This document shows, piece after piece, positions 13,772-25,011 of a stretch of DNA of 64,000 nucleotides. Position 1 is the stretch's first letter. Every line of letters begins with the position of its first letter. Source of the DNA: a virus (taxonomy: Duplodnaviria > Heunggongvirae > Uroviricota > Caudoviricetes); IMG/VR virus record IMGVR_UViG_2713896908_000007; one strand, 5' to 3'. The notes beneath the pieces are model-generated. The model did not search any database, was not told the origin of the DNA, and was given only the letters and a program-made list of their open reading frames with translations. Made by a program: the position numbers and the translations under genes.

Positions 13772-14920
13772 TTATCCAAACCAATTTTCTAGAACATTTT
13801 CAAATTTATGGGTAACTTGCCACCATAAATAGTTCTCTAATACATATTTCTTTCCGTTATTTGCAATTTGTTCTAATTTTTCGGAGTGTAATGTTTCATA
13901 TATATCACTAGCTAAACTTTCTGGCAACATTGGTTCATTTATATGAAATCCTGTATGGTTATTTTTTACAAATTCAACCATTCCACCTCGAGTGCTAACT
14001 AAAACGGGTTTTCCTGCCCCCATAGCTTCTATAGCAACCATGCAGAACGGTTCTTGAAACTGAGATGGGATTACAACTAGATCGGCTATAGGATAGTAAC
14101 GGTACATATCATCTGGTTTTACCCCGCCAACAAGATGACAACGCGAACCAATAGTTCCAGCAAGTTCCCTTACTTGTTTTTGATATGCAGCTTTTTCTCC
14201 TTTATCTTTATTATTGTAGTCACCAACAACTACAAGTTCTATATTGTCACATGATTTTATCAATTTTTTAAACGCTTGTAATAGTAAAACAGTCCCTTTT
14301 TCAGGGGAGATCCTTCCCGCATAAAAGATAACTTTTTTCTCAGAGGGAATGCCTAAATCTTGTTTTGTTAGCGGGGGTAGCCCTTTATCTAGATTGTGTG
14401 GTTCTGTACCATTAGGAACTATACAAATTTCAGCGTCAGGAAGATGTTTTTCATAAAAATCCTTTAAATACTGACTTGGAACAAGCATTTTCACATTGCT
14501 ATCTAGCCCTTTCGGTGTAAAGGCATTATGCATATGCATTATCATTTTTGCGTCAGGAGCTTTCTCTCTAATTTGACGATAAAGTTTCATGCTGTTATGA
14601 ACAATAATAATGCTATCGTTTGTGATATTGAAATCTTTAGCAATGTTTAACACTCGTTGTGAATATGGAATAGGATCTATTCTGCTCCATTTTTGAAATA
14701 TCCGTTTATAAAGACGGCTAAACCCTATTCTATGGATAGAGCATCGCTCATTAACAATATCTTTTTCTGAGAAACCATCCTCTCGAATGCATGCTATACG
14801 ATTTGGTATTCTTGTTCTCTTTGCGACTTGATATATCCAAGTTTCAACAGCTGCTGCGCCACGAGGTGGTATTGAAAATATTGGTGTAACTGTAAATATT
14901 AATTTGTCAATCATGAGCAA
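13772..14920 (-). CDS. GT4-family (GT-B) glycosyltransferase
   Basis: 382-aa ORF; C-terminal EX7E-type motif region …VSTRGGMVEFVKNNHTGFHINEP…; AT-rich codon usage; TTG start overlapping upstream gene. Confidence 0.8.
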   Translation of the reverse strand: MLMIDKLIFTVTPIFSIPPRGAAAVETWIYQVAKRTRIPNRIACIREDGFSEKDIVNERCSIHRIGFSRLYKRIFQKWSRIDPIPYSQRVLNIAKDFNITNDSIIIVHNSMKLYRQIREKAPDAKMIMHMHNAFTPKGLDSNVKMLVPSQYLKDFYEKHLPDAEICIVPNGTEPHNLDKGLPPLTKQDLGIPSEKKVIFYAGRISPEKGTVLLLQAFKKLIKSCDNIELVVVGDYNNKDKGEKAAYQKQVRELAGTIGSRCHLVGGVKPDDMYRYYPIADLVVIPSQFQEPFCMVAIEAMGAGKPVLVSTRGGMVEFVKNNHTGFHINEPMLPESLASDIYETLHSEKLEQIANNGKKYVLENYLWWQVTHKFENVLENWFG

Positions 14921-15458
14921 CTATCCTCTTATAATCTTTTTCCTTTAAATGTTTTTTTGGGGTTGCGGGAGAGCCCGCATACATTGTATTAGCAGGAACA
15001 TCAGTATTTACAACGCTATTTGCAGCTATAACACTATTGTCTCCTATTTTTACACCTGGTAGCACAGTTGTATTTGCCCCAATCCAAACATTACGGCCTA
15101 TTTTTATTGGAGCGCAAATTGTTTCTTTGGGACGTTTGCTTGGTGTTAGTGGATGCGTGACAGTTGTTAATACAACGTTGGGGCCAATGGCAGAGTTACA
15201 TCCAATATCTATTGTTTTTGCATCGAGAAAAACACAATTTGCGTTAATGAAGACCTTTTTATCAATAATTATATTGCCATTCTCAAAATAAAATGGAGCT
15301 GTTATTGTTGAGTCTTCACTTACTTTAACTCCTGTTTTTTTTAATGTGATTAATTTTTTTCTTTTTGAGATCAAGGTATAATTAAATATATGTCTTGCTT
15401 TCTTTGCTTTCTTTTTTTGAAAAATTATATAGAAATAATATGTTAGCAAATCAAACAT
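14907..15458 (-). CDS. hexapeptide-repeat (LbH) sugar O-acetyltransferase (maltose/galactoside acetyltransferase family)
   Basis: …IGCNSAIGPNVVLTTVTHPL…IGRNVWIGANTTVLPGVKIGDNSVIAANSVV… hexapeptide repeats; Lys-rich N-terminus encoded by A7-A8 tracts. Confidence 0.8.
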   Translation of the reverse strand: MFDLLTYYFYIIFQKKKAKKARHIFNYTLISKRKKLITLKKTGVKVSEDSTITAPFYFENGNIIIDKKVFINANCVFLDAKTIDIGCNSAIGPNVVLTTVTHPLTPSKRPKETICAPIKIGRNVWIGANTTVLPGVKIGDNSVIAANSVVNTDVPANTMYAGSPATPKKHLKEKDYKRIVAHD

Positions 15459-15812: not shown

Positions 15813-15892
15813 GCGTCTTTTCTTTATAAATATAGGGAGCCATCAAAATCTGACATTAATTATCTATCGAAATATTTTGAATGACTGGTGAG

Positions 15893-15911
15893 AAGTTACT
15901 TTGCATACCAT
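15893..15911 (+). promoter_or_regulatory. candidate late promoter (AAGTTACTT-N4-TACCAT) for lydA-darA operon
   Basis: 9-bp inverted repeat plus -10-like hexamer about 30 nt upstream of the GTG start, which has an AGGAGG RBS. Confidence 0.5.
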
Positions 15912-15939
15912 TACCTCCTGACAACGTAGGAGGGAACTT

Positions 15940-16269
15940 GTGCTTGACACACAGGAATTAGCTCCAGTTGCTATTGCGCTCCTGCTTTCAGTAATTGGTG
16001 GGATAGGCACGTTCCTGATGGATGTCCGAGACGGTCGCCAGTCTGGCAATTTGTTGGGATTGGTTACGGAGATCTTTGTTGCAGTGACAGCTGGCGCGGT
16101 GGCGTACCTATTGGGGCAACACGAGGGCTGGGAGTTATCAATTACGTACTTAATGGTAACGATAGCCAGCAATAACGGTCATGAGGTGATTTCAGGGATG
16201 AAACGAGTGAATATCGATAGCATTCTGAATGTTCTTACAAGTTTGGTGAAAAAGGGAGGCGGGAAATGA
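15940..16269 (+). CDS. lydA: holin-like membrane protein (P1 LydA-like)
   Basis: 109-aa ORF, GTG start with AGGAGG RBS; three hydrophobic segments; position at head of the darA-type operon. Confidence 0.55.
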   Translation: MLDTQELAPVAIALLLSVIGGIGTFLMDVRDGRQSGNLLGLVTEIFVAVTAGAVAYLLGQHEGWELSITYLMVTIASNNGHEVISGMKRVNIDSILNVLTSLVKKGGGK

Positions 16270-16709
16270 TTGGCTGGGGTGTATGCGCTCTTGCGGCAGC
16301 CTTAGCTGATCGCTATTTGCTAAAACGCAAGGACATCACGAATTTAGAGCTTGGTGATGTGGAAATTAAACCGGGATTTATCCGGGTGCCGTTCAAATAT
16401 CGGTCTAAATTCCCGTTTTTGCGCGGTGCAACGGTCAGATATTGGCTCCGTGATGTTCAGAAGCCGACGACAGTGATTGAAGGCGAACAACGTTGCCTGA
16501 CGTCGGCTGAACAGGGCGAAAACAGTGAATGGTTGTACATACCCACTGAATATATGGGTAAAGGAGAACGACTGTGGCATTTCAACGTCATGGTTACGCA
16601 CGGCGACTCGTTCATTAACCCGTTGTATCGGATTTTCCCTGTTACTCAGCAAATCCGCAGAAGTTACGTAATAAATCTCGCACAGGATGTGTCAGATGAC
16701 GAAAAATAA
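16266..16709 (+). CDS. hypothetical protein (P1 LydB-like antiholin by position)
   Basis: 147-aa ORF, ATGA-coupled to the holin-like gene. Confidence 0.45.
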   Translation: MIGWGVCALAAALADRYLLKRKDITNLELGDVEIKPGFIRVPFKYRSKFPFLRGATVRYWLRDVQKPTTVIEGEQRCLTSAEQGENSEWLYIPTEYMGKGERLWHFNVMVTHGDSFINPLYRIFPVTQQIRRSYVINLAQDVSDDEK

Positions 16710-17298
16710 GTATGCAACGGTCGATTTTGACCAGGTTAATGAAAAGGGGCTTAAATCCCTTATCACGGCGATCAATAAAACCGGTGTTACGGTAATTGAG
16801 GTTGACTCCAGCAACCGCGCAACTACGAAAGATGGCGTTAAAGTTAAAACCGCAAAGTTGGTTCTTAACGACGGACAAATTCTTGCTATACAGGTAAATG
16901 ATACTGGCGATATATCGTCTGTGAAACTGAATGGAAAAGCTATTCCTAATGCTCAATCGCCAGATATCAAGACGCTTGGTACCGTCATGGGGCAAGCGGC
17001 CCACAAAAACGCTGCAAAATTCCAGAAATCACTGATCGCCAAAGCTAAACGTGTTGCCAATCCGGTAGACAAGAAACCGGCAGTTAAATCCAACTTTCAG
17101 CGCCTGCAAGAGGCAAAACAGCGGAATGCTCAGGTGGTTGCCGCTTATAAATCCGCGCAGAACTCGGTGTCTTTCAATCAACAGCAGATCACTGATTTGC
17201 GGGCGAAGCTGGATAAGGAGACAGGTCGACTCAATAACGAAAAGGCCAGGAATGGCGAACTCAAACGCCGTCTTAAGCAACTGAAAGCAGGAAATTAA
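16687..17298 (+). CDS. coiled-coil protein (P1 Hdf-like by position)
   Basis: 203-aa ORF (alternative ATG at 16696); local similarity to a segment of the downstream DarA-like protein (…KNAAKFQK… vs …KNSAKFQRAQKKKK…). Confidence 0.45.
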   Translation: MCQMTKNKYATVDFDQVNEKGLKSLITAINKTGVTVIEVDSSNRATTKDGVKVKTAKLVLNDGQILAIQVNDTGDISSVKLNGKAIPNAQSPDIKTLGTVMGQAAHKNAAKFQKSLIAKAKRVANPVDKKPAVKSNFQRLQEAKQRNAQVVAAYKSAQNSVSFNQQQITDLRAKLDKETGRLNNEKARNGELKRRLKQLKAGN

Positions 17299-17299
17299 C

Positions 17300-19219
17300 A
17301 TGGAACAGTTCAATATCAATAAAGGGGTGACGATCAAACCTGGGCTTGACGTGCTTCCCCCGCCAGTGACTGATGATGAATATCGCGCATTAATGGCCGG
17401 TGAGGACCGCTATCTGATGACGGAATCCAACACCCTGGAGGAAATCGAGGCTACGTTCTTCTATGACAAGCCGATCCACTGGTGTGCTACGGATTTACTG
17501 GAGGCGATTAGTTCTACTCGTTTGCAGTTACACCGGACCATGCAGGCATTTGTCCGGGCATTGAACCAGAAGCTGAATGGTACCGGAATCTCTGCGGGGA
17601 GTGATAAAACGGGGGATGTGGCCCAGAGCGGCGCGCGCGCGATCGGCGGCGCTGAAATTGGTCGGGCACGTAACGTTAACGGGCTGCCGGTCCTGCCAGC
17701 CATTATTCCGCTCAGTGATGGTCAGACTATCAGCATTTTGTTTCATAGCCCGACAGCGGAAAACCGGATCACCAATAGCGATACGCTGGTTGCTTTCCAG
17801 TTCTTACTGAATAAAAAAGACGTTACTCACACCGTTGCTCCGATGAGTGGACGTGATATGACGCTGGCGCAGGTCACCATGAAACTTGCCAACCTTGCAG
17901 AGAAAAACTCGGCAAAATTCCAGCGTGCGCAGAAGAAGAAAAAAGCCCTGGTTGATGAAATAACCCAACTACAGGCTGACAGTGACCAGAAAGAGGATGC
18001 CATGAGCGACCTCGCGGATCAGGTGGCAGCGGTAGAAGGCCAGAAGGCAGATCTGGAGCAGAAAATTAACGCGGTTGCTTCGGAAGCGGATTCTCTTTAT
18101 CAAGAAAATGAGCGTTTGCAGGCGGAGATTGAGCAGCTCAATCGCACTGGTGGGCGCGATACCATTGCTCCAACGGGGATGACTGGTGGGCACTCTCGCG
18201 CGCTGACGGATCGCCTTGCCAGTATCAAAAATCGTATGCATATGGACGGGGAAGCGACGCTCAGTAATGGTGCATCAATGAAGCAATTCATTGGGGACGG
18301 CAAAGGGTATGTCCAGTTAACCGATCCGGATGGCAGCGTGTACATGATCAAGGCTAAATCCATACAGGGTGTGGACATGGCAGATGCGATCGGCAAGCTG
18401 TTTAAAGCCTATAAAGCGGGTAACGTATCGGAATATCTGGTCCAACCAGAAGAGCCTAAACCGGAAAACGTCGAACCTGAACCAGCGGAAGATACCGGTA
18501 GCTCTTCGCCTGAACCAGAAGTCTCTGTAGGTGCATATCGATATGCCCTGCAAATGCGTCCGGCGGCCCCAGGCGCGATACCTGAAGGTAACAAAGCAAT
18601 TCTGCCGTGCCCTGATGAAGGTGACCCGTATTATGAATATGCGCGCTACGGCATTGTTACTTACGATACCCCGCTTTCTGATCAGCAAATGAGTGAGTAC
18701 GACCTGAAGTTATTGCCTCGCGAGGATTCTTTCGACTTCCTGGCGAAGACACTTACTAATGGTCCGTTTGGCAAATATGCACAAAAAGCTCTGGAGCTGG
18801 CCACCAGCTCACCAGACGAGTTCCGCGTAATGCTGAAAACTCAGTTTCAAAAAACTTTCCCCAATATTGCGTTTCCGGGGGGCGCAGGCACCGAGAAAAT
18901 GGTGCAGAGCATGATCAATGCATTGCAGGCCGAAGTCGGTGAGATTACTCAACCAGAATCGGCCCCGGAACAGCATGATGAAAAGGTTAGCGAAGCAGAT
19001 GCAGAGGCTAATAAAGCCATTGAATATCTCAATAACGTGATGGATATGCAAAGCACTGACATGGCGGAGATCCGCAACGCCAGGGGCAATGTCAGGGAAG
19101 CGATTGCTGCCCTTCAGGCTGCCGGACGTTTTGATGAAAACGAAGAGCTGGTTAACGGCGCAGCTCGCCACCTGGCTGATCTGCTGGTAGCAATCCAGAA
19201 AGCGGGAGGAGCGGCATGA
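17300..19219 (+). CDS. darA: antirestriction/head internal protein (P1 DarA-like)
   Basis: 639-aa ORF in the operon position and size expected for DarA; central coiled-coil; assignment by synteny from memory. Confidence 0.55.
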   Translation: MEQFNINKGVTIKPGLDVLPPPVTDDEYRALMAGEDRYLMTESNTLEEIEATFFYDKPIHWCATDLLEAISSTRLQLHRTMQAFVRALNQKLNGTGISAGSDKTGDVAQSGARAIGGAEIGRARNVNGLPVLPAIIPLSDGQTISILFHSPTAENRITNSDTLVAFQFLLNKKDVTHTVAPMSGRDMTLAQVTMKLANLAEKNSAKFQRAQKKKKALVDEITQLQADSDQKEDAMSDLADQVAAVEGQKADLEQKINAVASEADSLYQENERLQAEIEQLNRTGGRDTIAPTGMTGGHSRALTDRLASIKNRMHMDGEATLSNGASMKQFIGDGKGYVQLTDPDGSVYMIKAKSIQGVDMADAIGKLFKAYKAGNVSEYLVQPEEPKPENVEPEPAEDTGSSSPEPEVSVGAYRYALQMRPAAPGAIPEGNKAILPCPDEGDPYYEYARYGIVTYDTPLSDQQMSEYDLKLLPREDSFDFLAKTLTNGPFGKYAQKALELATSSPDEFRVMLKTQFQKTFPNIAFPGGAGTEKMVQSMINALQAEVGEITQPESAPEQHDEKVSEADAEANKAIEYLNNVMDMQSTDMAEIRNARGNVREAIAALQAAGRFDENEELVNGAARHLADLLVAIQKAGGAA

Positions 19220-19602
19220 CACTATCAGCTATTGAGTTAATGGACCTCAGCGATAAGTTGGATGCTCTGATGTCCAAAGCTGCTACCGCGAGTGGCATGG
19301 AGTTGCTGGATATCAGCGATGAAATTGACCAGATCATGCAACAGATGGGGTACGGCGCGTCCGGCGGCGGTAGTGGCGAGGAAAAACAACCTTCAGTACA
19401 TGATGGTGTGCCAAAACTGGTTGCTGATTTCCTGGCTGATAAATTCGTCGATCAGAGCACCGATGCATTTATCGGCACCTTGCAGGACTTGAGTCAATAT
19501 GTTGGCACATACATCGACCTGGACCAGGTTAAACAGCACACGGCGGCATGGATAGCCGCCAACATTAAAGAGGCTTCAGGTGTTCGCAGCAACTCTACAT
19601 GA
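19216..19602 (+). CDS. hypothetical protein (P1 DdrA-like by position)
   Basis: 128-aa ORF, ATGA-coupled to the DarA-like gene. Confidence 0.45.
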   Translation: MTLSAIELMDLSDKLDALMSKAATASGMELLDISDEIDQIMQQMGYGASGGGSGEEKQPSVHDGVPKLVADFLADKFVDQSTDAFIGTLQDLSQYVGTYIDLDQVKQHTAAWIAANIKEASGVRSNST

Positions 19603-19663
19603 GCTGTAGTTTTCGAAGATTCTCACAAGTTCATTTCGCGTAGGTATTTATTTAACCATTAAA

Positions 19664-19701
19664 GCCGAATGCGGCGGGCACACCACATTCGGCAATTTTT
19701 T
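19664..19701 (+). terminator. rho-independent terminator of lydA-darA operon
   Basis: Stem gccgaatg/cattcggc followed by aatttttt. Confidence 0.6.
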
Positions 19702-19735
19702 GAAAACTATCAATGAATTAAATAATCAGAGGGGC

Positions 19736-20839
19736 TTATTCCCACTCTTGCAGGAAACGCTGACCGTACTGGTCGGCTACCAGCAGTGCAGCATAAACCT
19801 GATCTGGCGTTGCGCCGCCAGGCATGTTGTGGATGGTTTCACCTTCTGCACATGCCGCTTCTGCGACAATCCGCATTTTCGCCGGGATATCTTCTTTAAT
19901 ATCCAGTTGTGCCAGGGTAATTGGCAGGCCGACAGCATGGCACAGCGCAGCTACGGTTTCGATTTCTTCAACTGGTGCGTTTTCCAGAACCAGTTGCGTC
20001 AGCGTACCGAATGCCACTTTCTCACCGTGATAATAGTGATGCGCATCCGGAATGGCCGTCAGGCCATTGTGCACCGCGTGCGCCGCCGCCAGGCCGCCGC
20101 TTTCAAAGCCCACGCCGCTCAAATAGGTGTTAGCTTCAATCACACGTTCCAGCGCCGGAGTCACCACATGCTGTTCAGCGGCAAGCATCGCTTTTTCGCC
20201 TTCTTCCAGCAGGGTGTTGTAGCACAGTTCAGCCAGAGCCAGTGCTGCCTGAGTACATTTACCGCCCGCCATCGTGGTTGCGCCGCTGCGGGAACAGGCA
20301 CGTGCTTCAAACCAGGTTGCCAACGCATCGCCAATACCCGCCGCTAACAGACGTGCAGGTGCGCCAGCAACAATTTTGGTATCCACAATGACGCGTTCCG
20401 GGTTGTTTGGCAGCATCAGATAACGTTCAAACTCACCATCATCGGTGTAGATAACGGAAAGGGCGCTGCAAGGTGCGTCGGTTGAGGCAATGGTTGGGGC
20501 AACTGCAACAGGAACGCCCATAAAGTGTGCCAGTGCTTTGGCTGTATCGAGGGTTTTACCTCCGCCGATTCCCAGAATTGCGCTACACTGAGCATTCTCT
20601 GCAATACCCCGCAGACGATCGATTTCATTTTGCGAACATTCACCGCCGAACGGGGCAATTTCTACCTCTATTCCAGCATCTTTAAAACTTTTCTCAATAT
20701 TAGTTTGAGCAAAACCTAACACAAATTTGTCACCTACCACCAACCAATGTTCTGCCAGCGGTTTCAGGTATTCACCCAGGCGATTAATGACATCTGCGCC
20801 TTGGATGTATTTACCCGGTGATTGAATGATGCGGTCCAT
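19736..20839 (-). CDS. gldA: glycerol dehydrogenase (iron-containing alcohol dehydrogenase family)
   Basis: 367-aa ORF; N-terminus [30 protein letters not shown]… as in enterobacterial Gld[12 protein letters not shown] nucleotide-binding motif; AAAGGAG RBS; host-like GC content. Confidence 0.9.
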
Positions 20840-20910
20840 AATTGCTCCTTTAGAGATGAGTTATGCTAAATGTTTTGTTATTCCCGGATGACCTTCTGTA
20901 TATATCTTAA

Positions 20911-20929
20911 GTCAACATTATAAGTTGAC
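20911..20929. promoter_or_regulatory. perfect palindrome GTCAAC-N7-GTTGAC upstream of gldA
   Basis: 6-bp inverted repeat with 7-bp spacer, about 75 bp upstream of gldA start; candidate regulator-binding site. Confidence 0.3.
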
Positions 20930-20989
20930 GCCAATATTCCGTAGAAGAGATGTTACTTCGCGAGCAGTATGACTCCATAGGTTTCTGAG

Positions 20990-21008
20990 ACGTTACTTTG
21001 CATATGAT
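20990..21008 (+). promoter_or_regulatory. candidate late promoter (ACGTTACTT-N4-TATGAT)
   Basis: 9-bp inverted-repeat motif plus -10-like hexamer about 135 nt upstream of the 562-aa ORF; a second weaker copy (ATGTTACTT) at 20950. Confidence 0.45.
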
Positions 21009-21142
21009 ATTGCTGAGGCAAATACATTCAATGCCGCATTTTTGTGAGATTTTAAGCCAATCTACATCACCATTAGGTAAGAGTATCTTTTTTTGGTGGT
21101 GATGGCGCAATGTATCAGTGGACAGCATAAGGTGTAACAGGG

Positions 21143-22831
21143 ATGTGTTTGAACGATCATACAGTTATGGCCACCAGCAGCGGCTACATCGGTGTGGCAC
21201 CGTATACCCGCTTGCTATTACATCAGGCATCCGGCATCAAAGATATTATTCACCTGATCAGGCTGCTTTCCCGTACAGATCCCCAGGATGAACAGCTTGT
21301 TCAAGTGCTTGCGCATTTTGTCCGAATGCCTGTTGCCGACGTGAAAAAATGGTGCCGATTATTCGGTATCAGCAATTCGTTACTTCGCGGATTGTTAAAT
21401 CACGCATCCTCCCTTGGGCGCGACGGATTTGATGAGATAGCGCAGGCGATAAAAAACGGAGATATGCCACCAGCTATTGACTGGTTTTCCATTCGCCCAA
21501 CCAGGGTGAAAGCATTCCTTAGTGCGGCGCAATCAGCATCACCATTGGCAGAAATGGTTCAGAGGTTGTCGCTCATATTCACAGATCATACCGCGTTCGG
21601 TGATCTGGCTCTGGACGAGATGAAAGAAGCCTCCATTCAGTGGGCCGCTCAACAAAATGAGGTTAACTCAGACTTCTTGCCAGCATTCAGGAAGGCCGTT
21701 AGTAAAGCGGATGATGCCCGTGGAATTCTGAAGGCATTTAAGGCATTGCAAAGTCGGGTTAATAAACATGTCGGTGATATCGATGGGGTAACGGCGGAAG
21801 GCAGGGATATCCTTAAAGAGCACGGCATAACGCCAGAGTTTATTGATGAGATCAGGACGGATATGCAGCGTGAGGTCGTATCGTCCCTGCAAATTGTAGC
21901 CAGAGCGTTGGCGGATGCTAATCCGAAGAGTGCGGCCATTGTTAACCGGGTTATTGGTGATATTGAAGCATCGGAGGGCATGGGGGCGCTGAAACTCTTC
22001 CTTTCGCGAGCGTTTAATCCTAACGGCAATATTCTCCCTGGCATTATTGGTGAGGCTAAAAGGTATGTCAGTGAAGAAGAACTTGAGCAGCTTGACCAAC
22101 TACTTAAGCGATTCTCATATAACCCGCAGACACGCTGGCAAATGAATCAGCGAAGTATGGGTTCGGTCCACGAGAAAGTGTTATCTGCCATGAACAGTGC
22201 GATCGCAAACTCATCCGTATCTGAAGAAAAAGCTCTTGAGTGGGCCGACTCTTTTATCACGGAAGAAGTGGAAGAAGCCCGCGCTGGACAGAATGGTGGG
22301 ATAGACCTGCGCAAGGAACTTGCTGATATTTATCGCCTGACCGGCGGTAAAATTTCGACCCTATCAAAGATAATTCACCACCAGGGAAGGGCATATGCAA
22401 ATCTTAATGGTATTGTTGCTGTCAATTTGAACGATGAAAATGCAAGCGCACTGTGGCACGAGCTTGGTCATCATCTTGAGTACAGTAACCCTGGTCTGTT
22501 AGAGAAAGCCAGGTCATTCCTGAAGGCCAATGTTGAAGGGGATAAGCCATCTTTCGTTAATATCGGTGGGCGTGGTAAACCTGAATGGTGCTTCAGATCT
22601 CGATTGAGTAATATTTATATGGCGAAGGTATACCCGCCAGCCTCAGTGAGTAACTCCGGGAAAATTCGGCAGAAAGCACCGACTATTTCCAAAACGTCAG
22701 CAACGGAAGTATTCTCTATGGCTCTTCAGTTGTATCATGACAAAGAGGCCGCTGCCGCATCACTGATGAATGGTGACGGATTGCTGGAACTGTTATTAGG
22801 TGTGGCAAAGGAGCTAAATAATGCAGATTAA
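21143..22831 (+). CDS. hypothetical protein with HExxH zinc-metallopeptidase-like motif (possible P1 DdrB counterpart)
   Basis: 562-aa ORF; …NASALWHELGHHLEYS… HExxH motif; own late-type promoter. Confidence 0.55.
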   Translation: MCLNDHTVMATSSGYIGVAPYTRLLLHQASGIKDIIHLIRLLSRTDPQDEQLVQVLAHFVRMPVADVKKWCRLFGISNSLLRGLLNHASSLGRDGFDEIAQAIKNGDMPPAIDWFSIRPTRVKAFLSAAQSASPLAEMVQRLSLIFTDHTAFGDLALDEMKEASIQWAAQQNEVNSDFLPAFRKAVSKADDARGILKAFKALQSRVNKHVGDIDGVTAEGRDILKEHGITPEFIDEIRTDMQREVVSSLQIVARALADANPKSAAIVNRVIGDIEASEGMGALKLFLSRAFNPNGNILPGIIGEAKRYVSEEELEQLDQLLKRFSYNPQTRWQMNQRSMGSVHEKVLSAMNSAIANSSVSEEKALEWADSFITEEVEEARAGQNGGIDLRKELADIYRLTGGKISTLSKIIHHQGRAYANLNGIVAVNLNDENASALWHELGHHLEYSNPGLLEKARSFLKANVEGDKPSFVNIGGRGKPEWCFRSRLSNIYMAKVYPPASVSNSGKIRQKAPTISKTSATEVFSMALQLYHDKEAAAASLMNGDGLLELLLGVAKELNNAD

Positions 22832-23126
22832 AATCGCAGCGCCATTAGGCGGAGATGCAATTATCGAATTTGATGATAATGAAGAAGTTTCCGGGCGTTT
22901 AAGCATTATCTCCGGTGACATTACCGAGGACATGATCGCTGAAGCCATAGCTGGAGCAAATCCCAATAGCTATATGGGATTCGTTAACTCCCTTGATGCT
23001 CCCGCAAGCGATGTTCTCCGAACGCTGCATCTTTACGCTGGCTGGTTTGTTGATTGGCCAGCAGTAGAGGGTGGCGATGAGGACGACGATGATTTCGGTG
23101 ATAATATTAATCAGATTATATTTTAA
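22821..23126 (+). CDS. small acidic protein
   Basis: 101-aa ORF overlapping the upstream stop (coupled); C-terminal EGGDEDDDDFGD acidic tail. Confidence 0.5.
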   Translation: MQIKIAAPLGGDAIIEFDDNEEVSGRLSIISGDITEDMIAEAIAGANPNSYMGFVNSLDAPASDVLRTLHLYAGWFVDWPAVEGGDEDDDDFGDNINQIIF

Positions 23127-23285
23127 CCCATATGAGATATAATCGTTCTAATGGCATAAAGTTAGATTGTTCTTATATTCGACTTTGTGCCATCATTAGG
23201 ACTAATCATTTAGGGGTTCTTTTAGGTAGAAATTTAGCAATACATGTTTAGTATGGCAATATTTTCTAAAGGAGTTAGGTAAAAA

Positions 23286-24164
23286 GTGAAAAGAATTATT
23301 CCTGATAAAAAATGGTTAAAAGAAGAAAGCAGTAAGCGACAAGTGCCATCAGAATGTCCCTATGCAAATTCATATCGATGTCCTAGATATCACGAAAGTG
23401 TTATTTTGTTCTCACAGATGCAAATGATTGATGGCATGTCATATAATAAAGAGAAGGAGTTGAAACAGTTCTGGGAGAGAACCGACCTCTCTTCTTTATG
23501 TAATGGAGAAACCCCGTTGGTCTCAAAAAATGATAAAGGCGGGATTTTCTCTATAGATAATTTCTGTCCAGAAATATCGTTTAGATATTTAGGTTACTAT
23601 GCAGACTATATGCTGAGATACATTGATGAAGATGCTCACACTATAGGGTATGGCATAGCTAAAAGAGATCAGAAAGAAAATGATTGGAAGTATGATTGGT
23701 CCGAGGTCAATGCTGTTTTCTATGAGGATTGTTACCTCTTTGAGAGAGTTAAACAATTCAATAAAGAACTTCATGATAGTTTCTTTAAAAGACTACATCC
23801 GAATATTGTAATGCAAATAAGTAGAATGGATAAGTGTTTGGACTCAAATGACCCAACCGGTGTTTTGCATGCGGCATCTAATATTCTAGAAACAATGGCT
23901 AAAGAAATATTAGATGATCCAAATGTATTAAATAAATCGTTTGGCTCTTTTTTTGAGAAGTTTAAAAAAGAGTCAAAGTTGCCGTTAGGGTTTATTAATG
24001 CAGTTAAAGATATTTATGACTTACGTAATAAAATACCTACTGCTGGTCATGGGGGGGTGGGGATGCCTGGGTTATCTTTATCTGATGCCATAATGATTGC
24101 TGCATCAACAAAGGCTATTGTAGAGATTGAGTACAGAAACATTGATGTGGCTGCTATTGATTGA
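23286..24164 (+). CDS. AT-rich accessory ORF, possible HEPN/Abi-like abortive-infection protein
   Basis: 292-aa ORF, GTG start with AAAGGAG RBS; markedly AT-rich versus flanks; N-terminal CPYANSYRCPRY Cys motif; C-terminal …DLRNKIPTAGHGG… R-x7-H motif reminiscent of HEPN/Abi_C. Confidence 0.5.
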   Translation: MKRIIPDKKWLKEESSKRQVPSECPYANSYRCPRYHESVILFSQMQMIDGMSYNKEKELKQFWERTDLSSLCNGETPLVSKNDKGGIFSIDNFCPEISFRYLGYYADYMLRYIDEDAHTIGYGIAKRDQKENDWKYDWSEVNAVFYEDCYLFERVKQFNKELHDSFFKRLHPNIVMQISRMDKCLDSNDPTGVLHAASNILETMAKEILDDPNVLNKSFGSFFEKFKKESKLPLGFINAVKDIYDLRNKIPTAGHGGVGMPGLSLSDAIMIAASTKAIVEIEYRNIDVAAID

Positions 24165-24228: not shown

Positions 24229-25011
24229 TTAATCACTTTCTACCTCTTCCGTTGAGTTTTCCAATGCTGCGCGACACAATTTCCTGGCATTGGTTATAGC
24301 CACACTTTTTACCTCATCCGTCATTGTACAGGTAATGTACTGATCGAGTTCTTCAGCTCGGATGATGCTTTTCCCAATCATAAACTCTATTTGCCAGAGC
24401 AGATCGGCATCCATCGTCAGTATTTCAGCCTGGCCTTCTGGGCCTGCGGGGAAGCAAACATAAGACTGTTTGCCCAGGCCGATAACTCGACAACTTGCTT
24501 CAAGAATTGCACGCTTGAGGTCTGACTTTGTAACTGAAACAGGTTGATTTTCACCTGTGATTACGCCGTTGGCATGGACGTGGAAGGGCATGTAGCTTGA
24601 AATTCGCTCTACTTTCCATACGCCAGCAAGCGATCCTTCATGCAGCACAATGGGGGTAACCGCGAGTTTCATCTCACCATATAACTGCTGGCAGATAGCT
24701 GGATTGCTGAATACATCCAAAGGTTCACACTCAAACAGCGGTGCAATCTGCATGAGGTCCATCATGGTCATACCAGGGGTACGAGCAGTAATGAATCTGC
24801 GCATTCCAGTATCCATTGTGCGCCAGATAGCTACACCATGCTTTTTGCTCACTTCTTCAGTAAAGCCAAGGTGGCACATGATGGTTTTTTCGATAGCCAG
24901 ATCAGAGATAGAAACCTTTTCGCCTGGCACGCCATCATTATTGATGGTCACTTCGACACTCTGGCCATTACGTAGGCGGTATTGAATGGTTTTAGTATTT
25001 TGTGCTGTCAT
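24229..25011 (-). CDS. hypothetical protein (P1 IsaA-like by position)
   Basis: 260-aa ORF downstream of ssb on the same strand. Confidence 0.55.
   Translation of the reverse strand: MTAQNTKTIQYRLRNGQSVEVTINNDGVPGEKVSISDLAIEKTIMCHLGFTEEVSKKHGVAIWRTMDTGMRRFITARTPGMTMMDLMQIAPLFECEPLDVFSNPAICQQLYGEMKLAVTPIVLHEGSLAGVWKVERISSYMPFHVHANGVITGENQPVSVTKSDLKRAILEASCRVIGLGKQSYVCFPAGPEGQAEILTMDADLLWQIEFMIGKSIIRAEELDQYITCTMTDEVKSVAITNARKLCRAALENSTEEVESD

Follow-up and report, generated by a model that had tools for sequence, protein, structure and literature searches.

What is a housekeeping dehydrogenase gene doing in the middle of a phage late operon? The question is raised by a 64,000-nucleotide stretch of caudoviral DNA, IMG/VR record IMGVR_UViG_2713896908_000007 (the window), in which the glycerol dehydrogenase gene gldA lies antisense within the darA anti-restriction operon of a P1-like phage-plasmid. 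An earlier note on this DNA, made from its letters alone, had suggested an auxiliary metabolic gene, a captured host fragment, or a junction created by recombination or assembly. We think it probable, at roughly three chances in four, that gldA is the core of a moron, a self-sufficient unit of cargo that joined a P1-like lineage once, long ago, at the ddrA/ddrB boundary, that brought its own terminator and a compensating late promoter, and that would act by lysogenic conversion. In the concept of Juhala and Hendrix, a moron is an additional transcription unit, equipped with a promoter and a terminator, that lies between genes adjacent in related phages, often deviates in composition, and is frequently expressed from the prophage. 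We favor this reading because the unit is foreign and lies between otherwise adjacent phage genes in the opposite orientation, with a predicted terminator of its own, a flank bearing candidate promoters, and a deviant composition.

The segment between ddrA and ddrB

The features of the locus are as follows.

15893-15911, plus strand: LPdar, the native late promoter of the lydA-darA-ddrA(-ddrB) operon (AAGTTACTT-TGCA-TACCAT, an exact match to the annotated P1 LPdar)
19216-19602, plus strand: ddrA, 128 amino acids (aa), compared with 121 aa in P1 and empty-site plasmids
19575-21126, no strand: inserted segment of ~1552 bp, delimited by BLAST and base-level junctions against P1 and the empty-site Escherichia coli plasmid CP063732 and marked by the junction k-mers AAAGAGGCTTCAGGTG and GGACAGCATAAGGTG
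19664-19693, no strand: two-way terminator-like hairpin with a 13-bp stem (GCCGAATGCGG-N8-CCACATTCGGC)
19736-20839, minus strand: gldA, predicted bifunctional L-1,2-propanediol/glycerol dehydrogenase, 367 aa, intact (NF047954 and 5ZXL alignment)
20840-20872, minus strand: 33-bp remnant of the 3' end of chromosomal fsaB (last codons and stop) with the native gldA ribosome-binding site AGGAG, from alignment with seven chromosomal fsaB-gldA junctions
20873-21126, no strand: AT-rich (~38% GC) regulatory flank with divergent promoter candidates
20911-20929, no strand: palindrome GTCAAC-ATTATAA-GTTGAC, a possible operator
20990-21008, plus strand: P1 late-promoter-like site facing ddrB (Lpa-box ACGTTACTT, spacer TGCA, -10 element TATGAT)
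21143-22831, plus strand: ddrB, short allele of 562 aa with HELGHH kept, beginning at the conserved ddrB ATG and parted from ddrA by the insert

Over positions 15880 to 23127, the window and the P1 darA operon (lydA, lydB, hdf, darA, ddrA, ddrB, and hxr) are collinear at 96 to 97% identity, and the P1-like backbone of the window holds head, tail, lysis, and Dar genes. Given that positions 18600 to 22200 also match two Escherichia albertii plasmids at 100% (NZ_CP117651.1 and p2RM10705, CP045689.1), the sequence identifies the source element as a P1-like phage-plasmid of E. albertii.

Homology to P1 (locus L001) and to CP063732 (locus L002) stops at 19574 (...AAAGAGGC) and restarts at 21127 (ATAAGGTGTAACAGGGATG...). 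In the empty site, just 3 bp (GGT or AGC) lie between these two points, 4 bp before the ddrA stop codon, and the insert has replaced them. Since backbone homology stops at 19574, the last 9 codons of ddrA (19575 to 19602) are unlike those of P1 and empty-site ddrA, and the gene is lengthened; the ddrB start codon (21143) is unaltered. In P1, ddrA and ddrB belong to the same operon and are 12 bp apart, and they are likewise contiguous in CP063732. The earlier note had placed gldA between two Dar-region operons, with a terminator and a late promoter as their native boundaries. Instead, the insert splits a single lydA-lydB-hdf-darA-ddrA-ddrB operon, and both signals lie inside the insert and came in with it. 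The ordinary chromosome-plasmid boundary that had also been considered is excluded by the collinear P1 backbone on both sides. As a separate observation, the ddrA tail (19572 to 19602) reads KEASGVRSNST* here and KEFSGVINHST* in a second group of phage-plasmid alleles; the two tails differ sharply, in a local cluster of substitutions at the left junction, but have the same reading frame and length and agree in the S-G-V and S-T residues.

If chromosomal gldA reads had been misjoined into a plasmid contig, this would account for an otherwise unexpected central-metabolism gene in a phage late operon, in a species that also has a chromosomal gldA. However, the same insert is present, with the same junctions, in the complete sequences of 15 E. 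albertii P1-like plasmids and also in at least 24 draft contigs. The complete plasmids come from wild birds and humans, from the USA and Poland, and from different laboratories, and they comprise two replicon types. The exact GldA protein is encoded on 35 contigs, none longer than 103 kb, with the order darA-ddrA-gldA-ddrB in 10 of the 10 places shown. Because no fewer than 15 independent complete plasmids and 24 contigs have these junctions and because two alleles ~3% apart track the backbone, and with only 87.9% nucleotide identity between the insert gldA and the E. albertii chromosomal gene, we regard an assembly artifact or chimera as excluded and its chance as negligible.

The search for the same insertion in related elements, which had been proposed as a check, also marks out its limits: beyond these E. 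albertii plasmids, the insert was not found in 19 P1-like phage records or ~480 other P1-like plasmids. Its site is not among the eight highly variable regions reported for P1-like phage-plasmids (PMC9603915). A literature search found no published description of gldA or glycerol dehydrogenase in connection with E. albertii or phage-plasmids.

The insert holds no transposase or integrase, no terminal inverted repeats, no flanking direct repeats, no target duplication (a repeat scan gave only chance-level matches of 9 to 22 nt), and no attC site, and it thus lacks the marks of a transposon, insertion sequence (IS), or integron cassette. Given these absences and junction microhomology of at most 3 to 4 bp, the data point to illegitimate recombination as the probable mechanism of insertion. 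Within the insert, gldA is the sole conserved open reading frame (ORF). A 73-aa ORF at 20907 to 21128 (minus strand) was ruled out as a gene, since indels break its frame in two sister alleles (loci L092 and L004), and positions 19300 to 21400 gave no Rfam match to a structured RNA at an E value of ≤1.

Origin, age, and spread of gldA

The product scores 749.5 bits against the NCBIfam equivalog NF047954 (cutoff, 700), over residues 1 to 365 of 365, and an identical protein is annotated with Pfam PF00465 (Fe-ADH)/PF13685. Being above the equivalog cutoff, it is predicted to be GldA, a bifunctional L-1,2-propanediol/glycerol dehydrogenase, which confirms the full-length gene first noticed. Aligned end to end, it is 96% identical to the solved E. 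coli GldA (PDB 5ZXL), with 16 substitutions. All 16 lie outside the identical stretches that contain D171, H254, and H271 (E. coli numbering), which we take to be the metal-binding catalytic residues. As the earlier note had also stated, gldA has its own ribosome-binding site, AGGAG, 5 nt ahead of the ATG. No PADLOC hit indicating a defense role was obtained for GldA or its neighbors.

Comparison with chromosomes, likewise proposed at the outset as a means of defining the captured segment, showed that homology to Escherichia is confined to the gldA coding sequence plus 33 bp upstream, ending at 20872 on one side and at the gldA stop codon on the other. Because these 33 bp retain the fsaB end and the native AGGAG, they trace the source to a ptsA-fsaB-gldA operon of Escherichia type; Citrobacter differs from this type at the fsaB-gldA junction. 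With this remnant and its placement among Escherichia gldA sequences, the gene is a host-derived metabolic gene carried by a virus.

The insert gldA is 87.9 to 89.6% identical in nucleotide sequence to the gldA of all Escherichia species representatives and ~83% identical to that of Citrobacter, and its synonymous divergence (dS) from the Escherichia representatives, E. albertii included, is 0.48 to 0.61. In a neighbor-joining tree, the phage-plasmid copies and the copy on the E. coli plasmid pZ1323HEC0477-2 form a clade with 100% bootstrap support, inside Escherichia (100%), and this clade is sister to the E. albertii chromosome in just 10.5% of replicates. The phage-plasmid gldA is therefore placed by this tree as a separate deep branch within Escherichia. 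The description of the gene as host type holds at the level of the genus and fails at that of the species. Its reportedly host-like GC content was likewise correct only in part: gldA, at 53.0%, is above the adjoining backbone (47.5 to 49.8%) and near chromosomal gldA (54 to 55%), whereas the insert's own flanks are at 38 to 40%.

A recent, specialized-transduction-like capture of the present host's gldA, followed by neutral hitchhiking, would also give an Escherichia-type sequence with an fsaB remnant, a native ribosome-binding site, and a GC content near that of the chromosome. It would not give the dS of 0.48 to 0.61 to every Escherichia representative, the separate deep branch, the absence of chromosomal flank beyond 33 bp, or the intactness and selective constraint described below, and we consider it highly improbable. 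The idea of a captured host fragment does not survive in this form.

Two allele groups of the insert can be distinguished, with 97.0 to 97.2% identity between groups, compared with 97.1 to 97.6% for the adjoining backbone. Since insert and backbone have diverged equally (~3%), these values indicate that one old insertion was probably followed by vertical descent with the phage-plasmid. The slightly lower GC content at third codon positions of the insert gldA (0.486, versus 0.51 to 0.53 for chromosomal alleles) is consistent with long residence on the element. The ratio of nonsynonymous to synonymous substitution rates (dN/dS) is 0.04 to 0.05 against chromosomal alleles and 0.10 within the phage-plasmid clade (8.3 nonsynonymous versus 25.7 synonymous differences), and gldA is free of stop codons and frameshifts in 18 of the 18 phage-plasmid loci examined. 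The gene is maintained by purifying selection.

Parts of the cassette have also reached other plasmids. The E. albertii IncF plasmid pEA32_1 (NZ_CP117601.1; locus L004, 8001 to 9627) carries the equivalent of positions 19595 to 21218, including ~90 bp of the ddrB 5' end that runs across the deletion junction of the short ddrB allele. Because this piece of ddrB is present, the copy appears to derive from a P1-like element. The gldA coding sequence of this copy shares 96.7% identity with an E. coli allele and groups with it in 97% of bootstraps, whereas the flanks are cassette-like, at ~88 to 90%. Given an E. coli-like coding sequence between cassette-like flanks, these data indicate transfer from phage-plasmid to plasmid and then, in all probability, gene conversion by a chromosomal gldA. 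pEA32_1 is conjugative, and the cassette lies there between relE/helix-turn-helix and yacAB toxin-antitoxin modules. The E. coli plasmid pZ1323HEC0477-2 carries gldA and 176 bp of the upstream flank, and the one hit in a metagenome collection is identical to it. Such export fits the reported exchange of genes between P1-like phage-plasmids and plasmids (PMC10879196).

Predicted transcription signals of the insert

The hairpin downstream of gldA folds at -18.1 kcal/mol (z score, -3.6) on the plus strand and at -24.5 kcal/mol (z score, -5.9) on the minus strand. On the plus strand it is followed by AATTTTTTG and is placed such that it would stop LPdar transcripts right after ddrA. On the minus strand it lies 42 nt past the gldA stop codon, with a short T-tract (UUUAAUGGUU), and there it is the predicted terminator of the unit. 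The stem is retained in the pEA32_1 copy, in which an A-T pair takes the place of a C.A mismatch.

The opposite flank contains a site resembling the late promoters of P1. P1 has 11 such promoters, in which Lpa binds a 9-bp inverted repeat, and its ddrA and ddrB genes are nonessential (PMC10695390). The P1 motif, AAGT(T/G)ACTT near -22 at 4 nt from a TANNNT -10 element, is found at 20990 to 21008 with 1 mismatch in 12 positions. The window contains the core pattern GTTACTT-N4-TANNNT 3 times, versus 0.08 expected, and the full 12-position pattern with at most 1 mismatch also 3 times, the sites without mismatch being LPdar (15893) and one at 8322. Like LPdar, the insert site has the form TGAGA(A/C)GTTACTTTGCATA, with 18 of 20 positions identical over TGAGAnGTTACTTTGCATAn, a 4-nt spacing to the -10 element, and the same orientation to the Dar genes. 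Unlike LPdar, it is a predicted Lpa site that lies inside foreign DNA, departs from the inverted repeat at one position, and has no evident homology to LPdar beyond the core. The motif is invariant save for one flanking base in the phage-plasmid alleles. Both non-phage plasmid copies are degenerate: pEA32_1 has ACATGACTT-TGTA, and pZ1323HEC0477-2 has a spacing of +1. We infer that the insert site may keep ddrB under late control after the splitting of the operon.

Lpa-box-like motifs in fact occur twice in this flank, 40 bp apart, at 20947 to 20961 (GAGATGTTACTTCGC, where a second copy of GAGATGTTACTT lies) and at 20987 to 21001 (GAGACGTTACTTTGC). Only the motif at 20987 to 21001 has a -10 element at the canonical 4-nt spacing; the one at 20947 to 20961 reads GTAACTT in both non-phage plasmid copies.

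On the gldA strand, the flank yielded no late-promoter motif, and the Lpa-box motifs there face away from gldA. A promoter for gldA probably lies in this flank, the best -10 candidate being TATAAT from the palindrome spacer, at 20922 to 20917 (minus strand). The perfect palindrome GTCAAC-N7-GTTGAC of the earlier note is present, its arms are invariant in all cassette copies, and its spacer varies between A and G. An exact-pattern scan of public collections gave 0 hits in IMG/VR and 1 metagenome hit, identical to pZ1323HEC0477-2. A likeness to the P1 C1 operator at the gldA ribosome-binding site (ATTGCTCCTTTAGAGAT, 11 of 17 positions by eye against the consensus) was rejected, the same sequence being found at the chromosomal fsaB-gldA junction.

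From this anatomy, we infer how promoter use, expression timing, and host benefit might fit together. Illegitimate recombination at the ddrA/ddrB boundary would have introduced the last gene of an Escherichia-type ptsA-fsaB-gldA operon (33 bp of the fsaB end, ribosome-binding site, and coding sequence) between two AT-rich flanks. The upstream flank probably provides a sigma-70 promoter, with its TATAAT enclosed by the palindrome, such that GldA would be made while the element is a plasmid prophage and would provide E. albertii with a second glycerol/1,2-propanediol dehydrogenase under different regulation, a form of lysogenic conversion. The downstream hairpin would end the gldA transcript and, on the opposite strand, LPdar transcription. 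The resulting polar effect on ddrB would be offset by the Lpa-type promoter pointing at that gene. The cassette would since have been inherited vertically with the phage-plasmid, pieces of it moving to IncF-type plasmids as well.

Several observations weigh against this account. P1 may antiterminate its late transcripts, in which case the hairpin need not be polar. The Lpa-box of the insert has one mismatch to the perfect inverted repeat (ACGTTACTT versus AAGTTACTT). The TATAAT candidate has a poor -35 element, and a generic sigma-70 scan found one weak site matching at 9 of 12 positions (TTGAAT-16-TATCAT, 21031 to 21004, minus strand), versus 2.9 expected by chance. The palindrome was rejected as a significant feature on frequency, perfect inverted repeats with 6-nt arms and spacers of 0 to 10 nt occurring 1.28 times per 300 bp in the window, and its conservation is not above that of the adjoining flank. 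With respect to origin, none of 80 gldA loci from GTDB species representatives exceeds 89.6% identity or has the insert flanks. For those flanks (19575 to 19735 and 20873 to 21126), blastn searches set for distant matches found nothing in the phage collection or among 5,426 complete E. coli genomes, their matches being limited to the 15 E. albertii P1-like plasmids and the two IncF-type plasmids. Finally, the E. albertii species representative retains an intact chromosomal gldA, which makes the benefit of a second copy less evident.

Two other accounts of the selection on gldA have to be considered. The gene could be a true auxiliary metabolic gene of lytic growth, for example rebalancing NAD+/NADH or draining glycerol or dihydroxyacetone during virion production. 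Its place in the late-gene region, its maintenance under selection, and the overlap of its promoter region with a late-promoter-like element would all suit such a role. However, the Lpa-box motifs of the flank point away from gldA, converging late transcripts would oppose a gene antisense to them, and P1-like elements exist mostly as plasmids, for which a sigma-70-driven cargo gene is the simpler reading. A lytic role is accordingly one that we hold to be unlikely.

Alternatively, selection could act on the Dar system, the uncoupling of ddrB from ddrA under a separate late promoter being the advantage and gldA a passenger. The terminator and late promoter that flank the insert and the retention of ddrB are in keeping with this idea, as is the report that DdrB modulates restriction sensitivity (PMC12810830). 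The purifying selection, however, is on gldA itself, one sublineage has ddrB knocked out by an IS911-like element and gldA intact, and the cassette is kept on IncF plasmids that retain only ~90 bp of ddrB. An effect on the Dar system seems to us more unlikely still than a lytic role.

The moron reading can be carried further, although only tentatively, and the extended form is one that we would not yet bet on. The cassette might be a selected lysogenic-conversion module of an E. albertii-associated lineage, which supplies a second GldA outside ptsA-fsaB-gldA regulation, repairs its own polarity through an Lpa-dependent promoter, and was later exported to IncF plasmids, where one coding sequence was overwritten by an E. 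coli allele. If so, the second GldA could change how glycerol, dihydroxyacetone, methylglyoxal, or 1,2-propanediol is processed in the gut of birds or humans, and the cassette would be a case in which a moron carries, or has evolved, a compensating phage promoter.

Known cargo and the neighboring genes

Like the morons of temperate phages, the gldA unit lies between genes that are adjacent in P1 and in ~480 related plasmids, antisense to their operon, and it has a predicted terminator hairpin of its own, a flank with candidate promoters, a deviant GC content, and no mobility genes. It differs from typical morons in that it brings a housekeeping dehydrogenase, where the usual cargo is a gene for virulence, exclusion, or defense, and in that it carries a phage-type late promoter that appears to redrive the downstream ddrB. 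The cargo known from P1-like phage-plasmids includes the resistance genes blaCTX-M and mcr-1 (PMC9600943, PMC9603915, and PMC10879196). The gldA insert resembles it in belonging to the same element family, in being non-phage cargo of the plasmid state, and in showing evidence of exchange with conjugative or mobilizable plasmids. In contrast to resistance cargo, it lies outside the eight variable regions, has no IS, integron, or transposon association, and is old and vertically inherited. Compared with chromosomal E. coli gldA, it shares the 96% amino acid identity, the ribosome-binding site, and the fsaB end but has ~11% nucleotide divergence, is detached from ptsA-fsaB, has a new promoter region and terminator, and resides on a phage-plasmid.

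The gldA insert is thus real, recurrent, old, and selectively maintained cargo, as the proposal of a chromosome-derived central-metabolism gene behaving as phage-borne cargo had anticipated; of its details, the more interesting are the late promoter, with its putative compensating role, and the export of the cassette to IncF plasmids. It shows that P1-like phage-plasmids can hold ordinary central-metabolism genes over the long term, not only resistance or defense cargo, and suggests that a late operon may tolerate an insert that supplies a terminator at one end and a phage late promoter at the other. The locus is also a record of genes passing from a phage-plasmid into conjugative plasmids, and it makes a tractable system, with a single gene, junctions that are defined, and relatives that naturally lack the insert. 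Its practical impact is limited; gldA is already annotated in GenBank records, and both morons and phage-plasmid cargo are well known.

Of the 18 gldA-bearing loci examined, 16 have an intact ddrB ORF. The remaining two, L086 (NZ_CP126910.1, 6565 to 7818) and L092, which represent one sublineage, have ddrB split by a 1,254-bp IS911-like element of the IS3 family with OrfA/OrfB, and gldA is intact in both. The insertion point corresponds to window positions 22161 to 22163, where a 3-bp overlap suggests a target duplication. The short ddrB is an in-frame allele of 562 aa, versus 995 aa in P1, that lacks a block of the P1 locus (L001, 4032 to 5335). This deletion should remove most of the N-terminal DdrB-ParB region and leaves the HELGHH metallopeptidase motif in place. 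Since the short allele also occurs in plasmids without gldA, such as CP063732, it is independent of the insert. RefSeq tables have no CDS at the short ddrB, which is probably annotated as a pseudogene.

Two further observations concern the neighborhood. The slot between hxr and ssb is variable and here holds a 292-aa ORF (23286 to 24164, plus strand, ~34% GC) and a 260-aa ORF (24229 to 25011, minus strand), neither of which gave a Pfam, NCBIfam, or PADLOC match; in sister plasmids this slot is occupied by other genes, among them one for a Tad2-like protein (PF11195), one for an OmpC-type porin, and IS911. Directly upstream of lydA, at the place occupied by lydC/cin in other P1-like elements, lies a low-GC block (~13772 to 15458, minus strand, 27 to 39% GC). 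Its products are a GT4 lipopolysaccharide N-acetylglucosaminyltransferase-like protein and a hexapeptide acetyltransferase, and it may be serotype-converting cargo.

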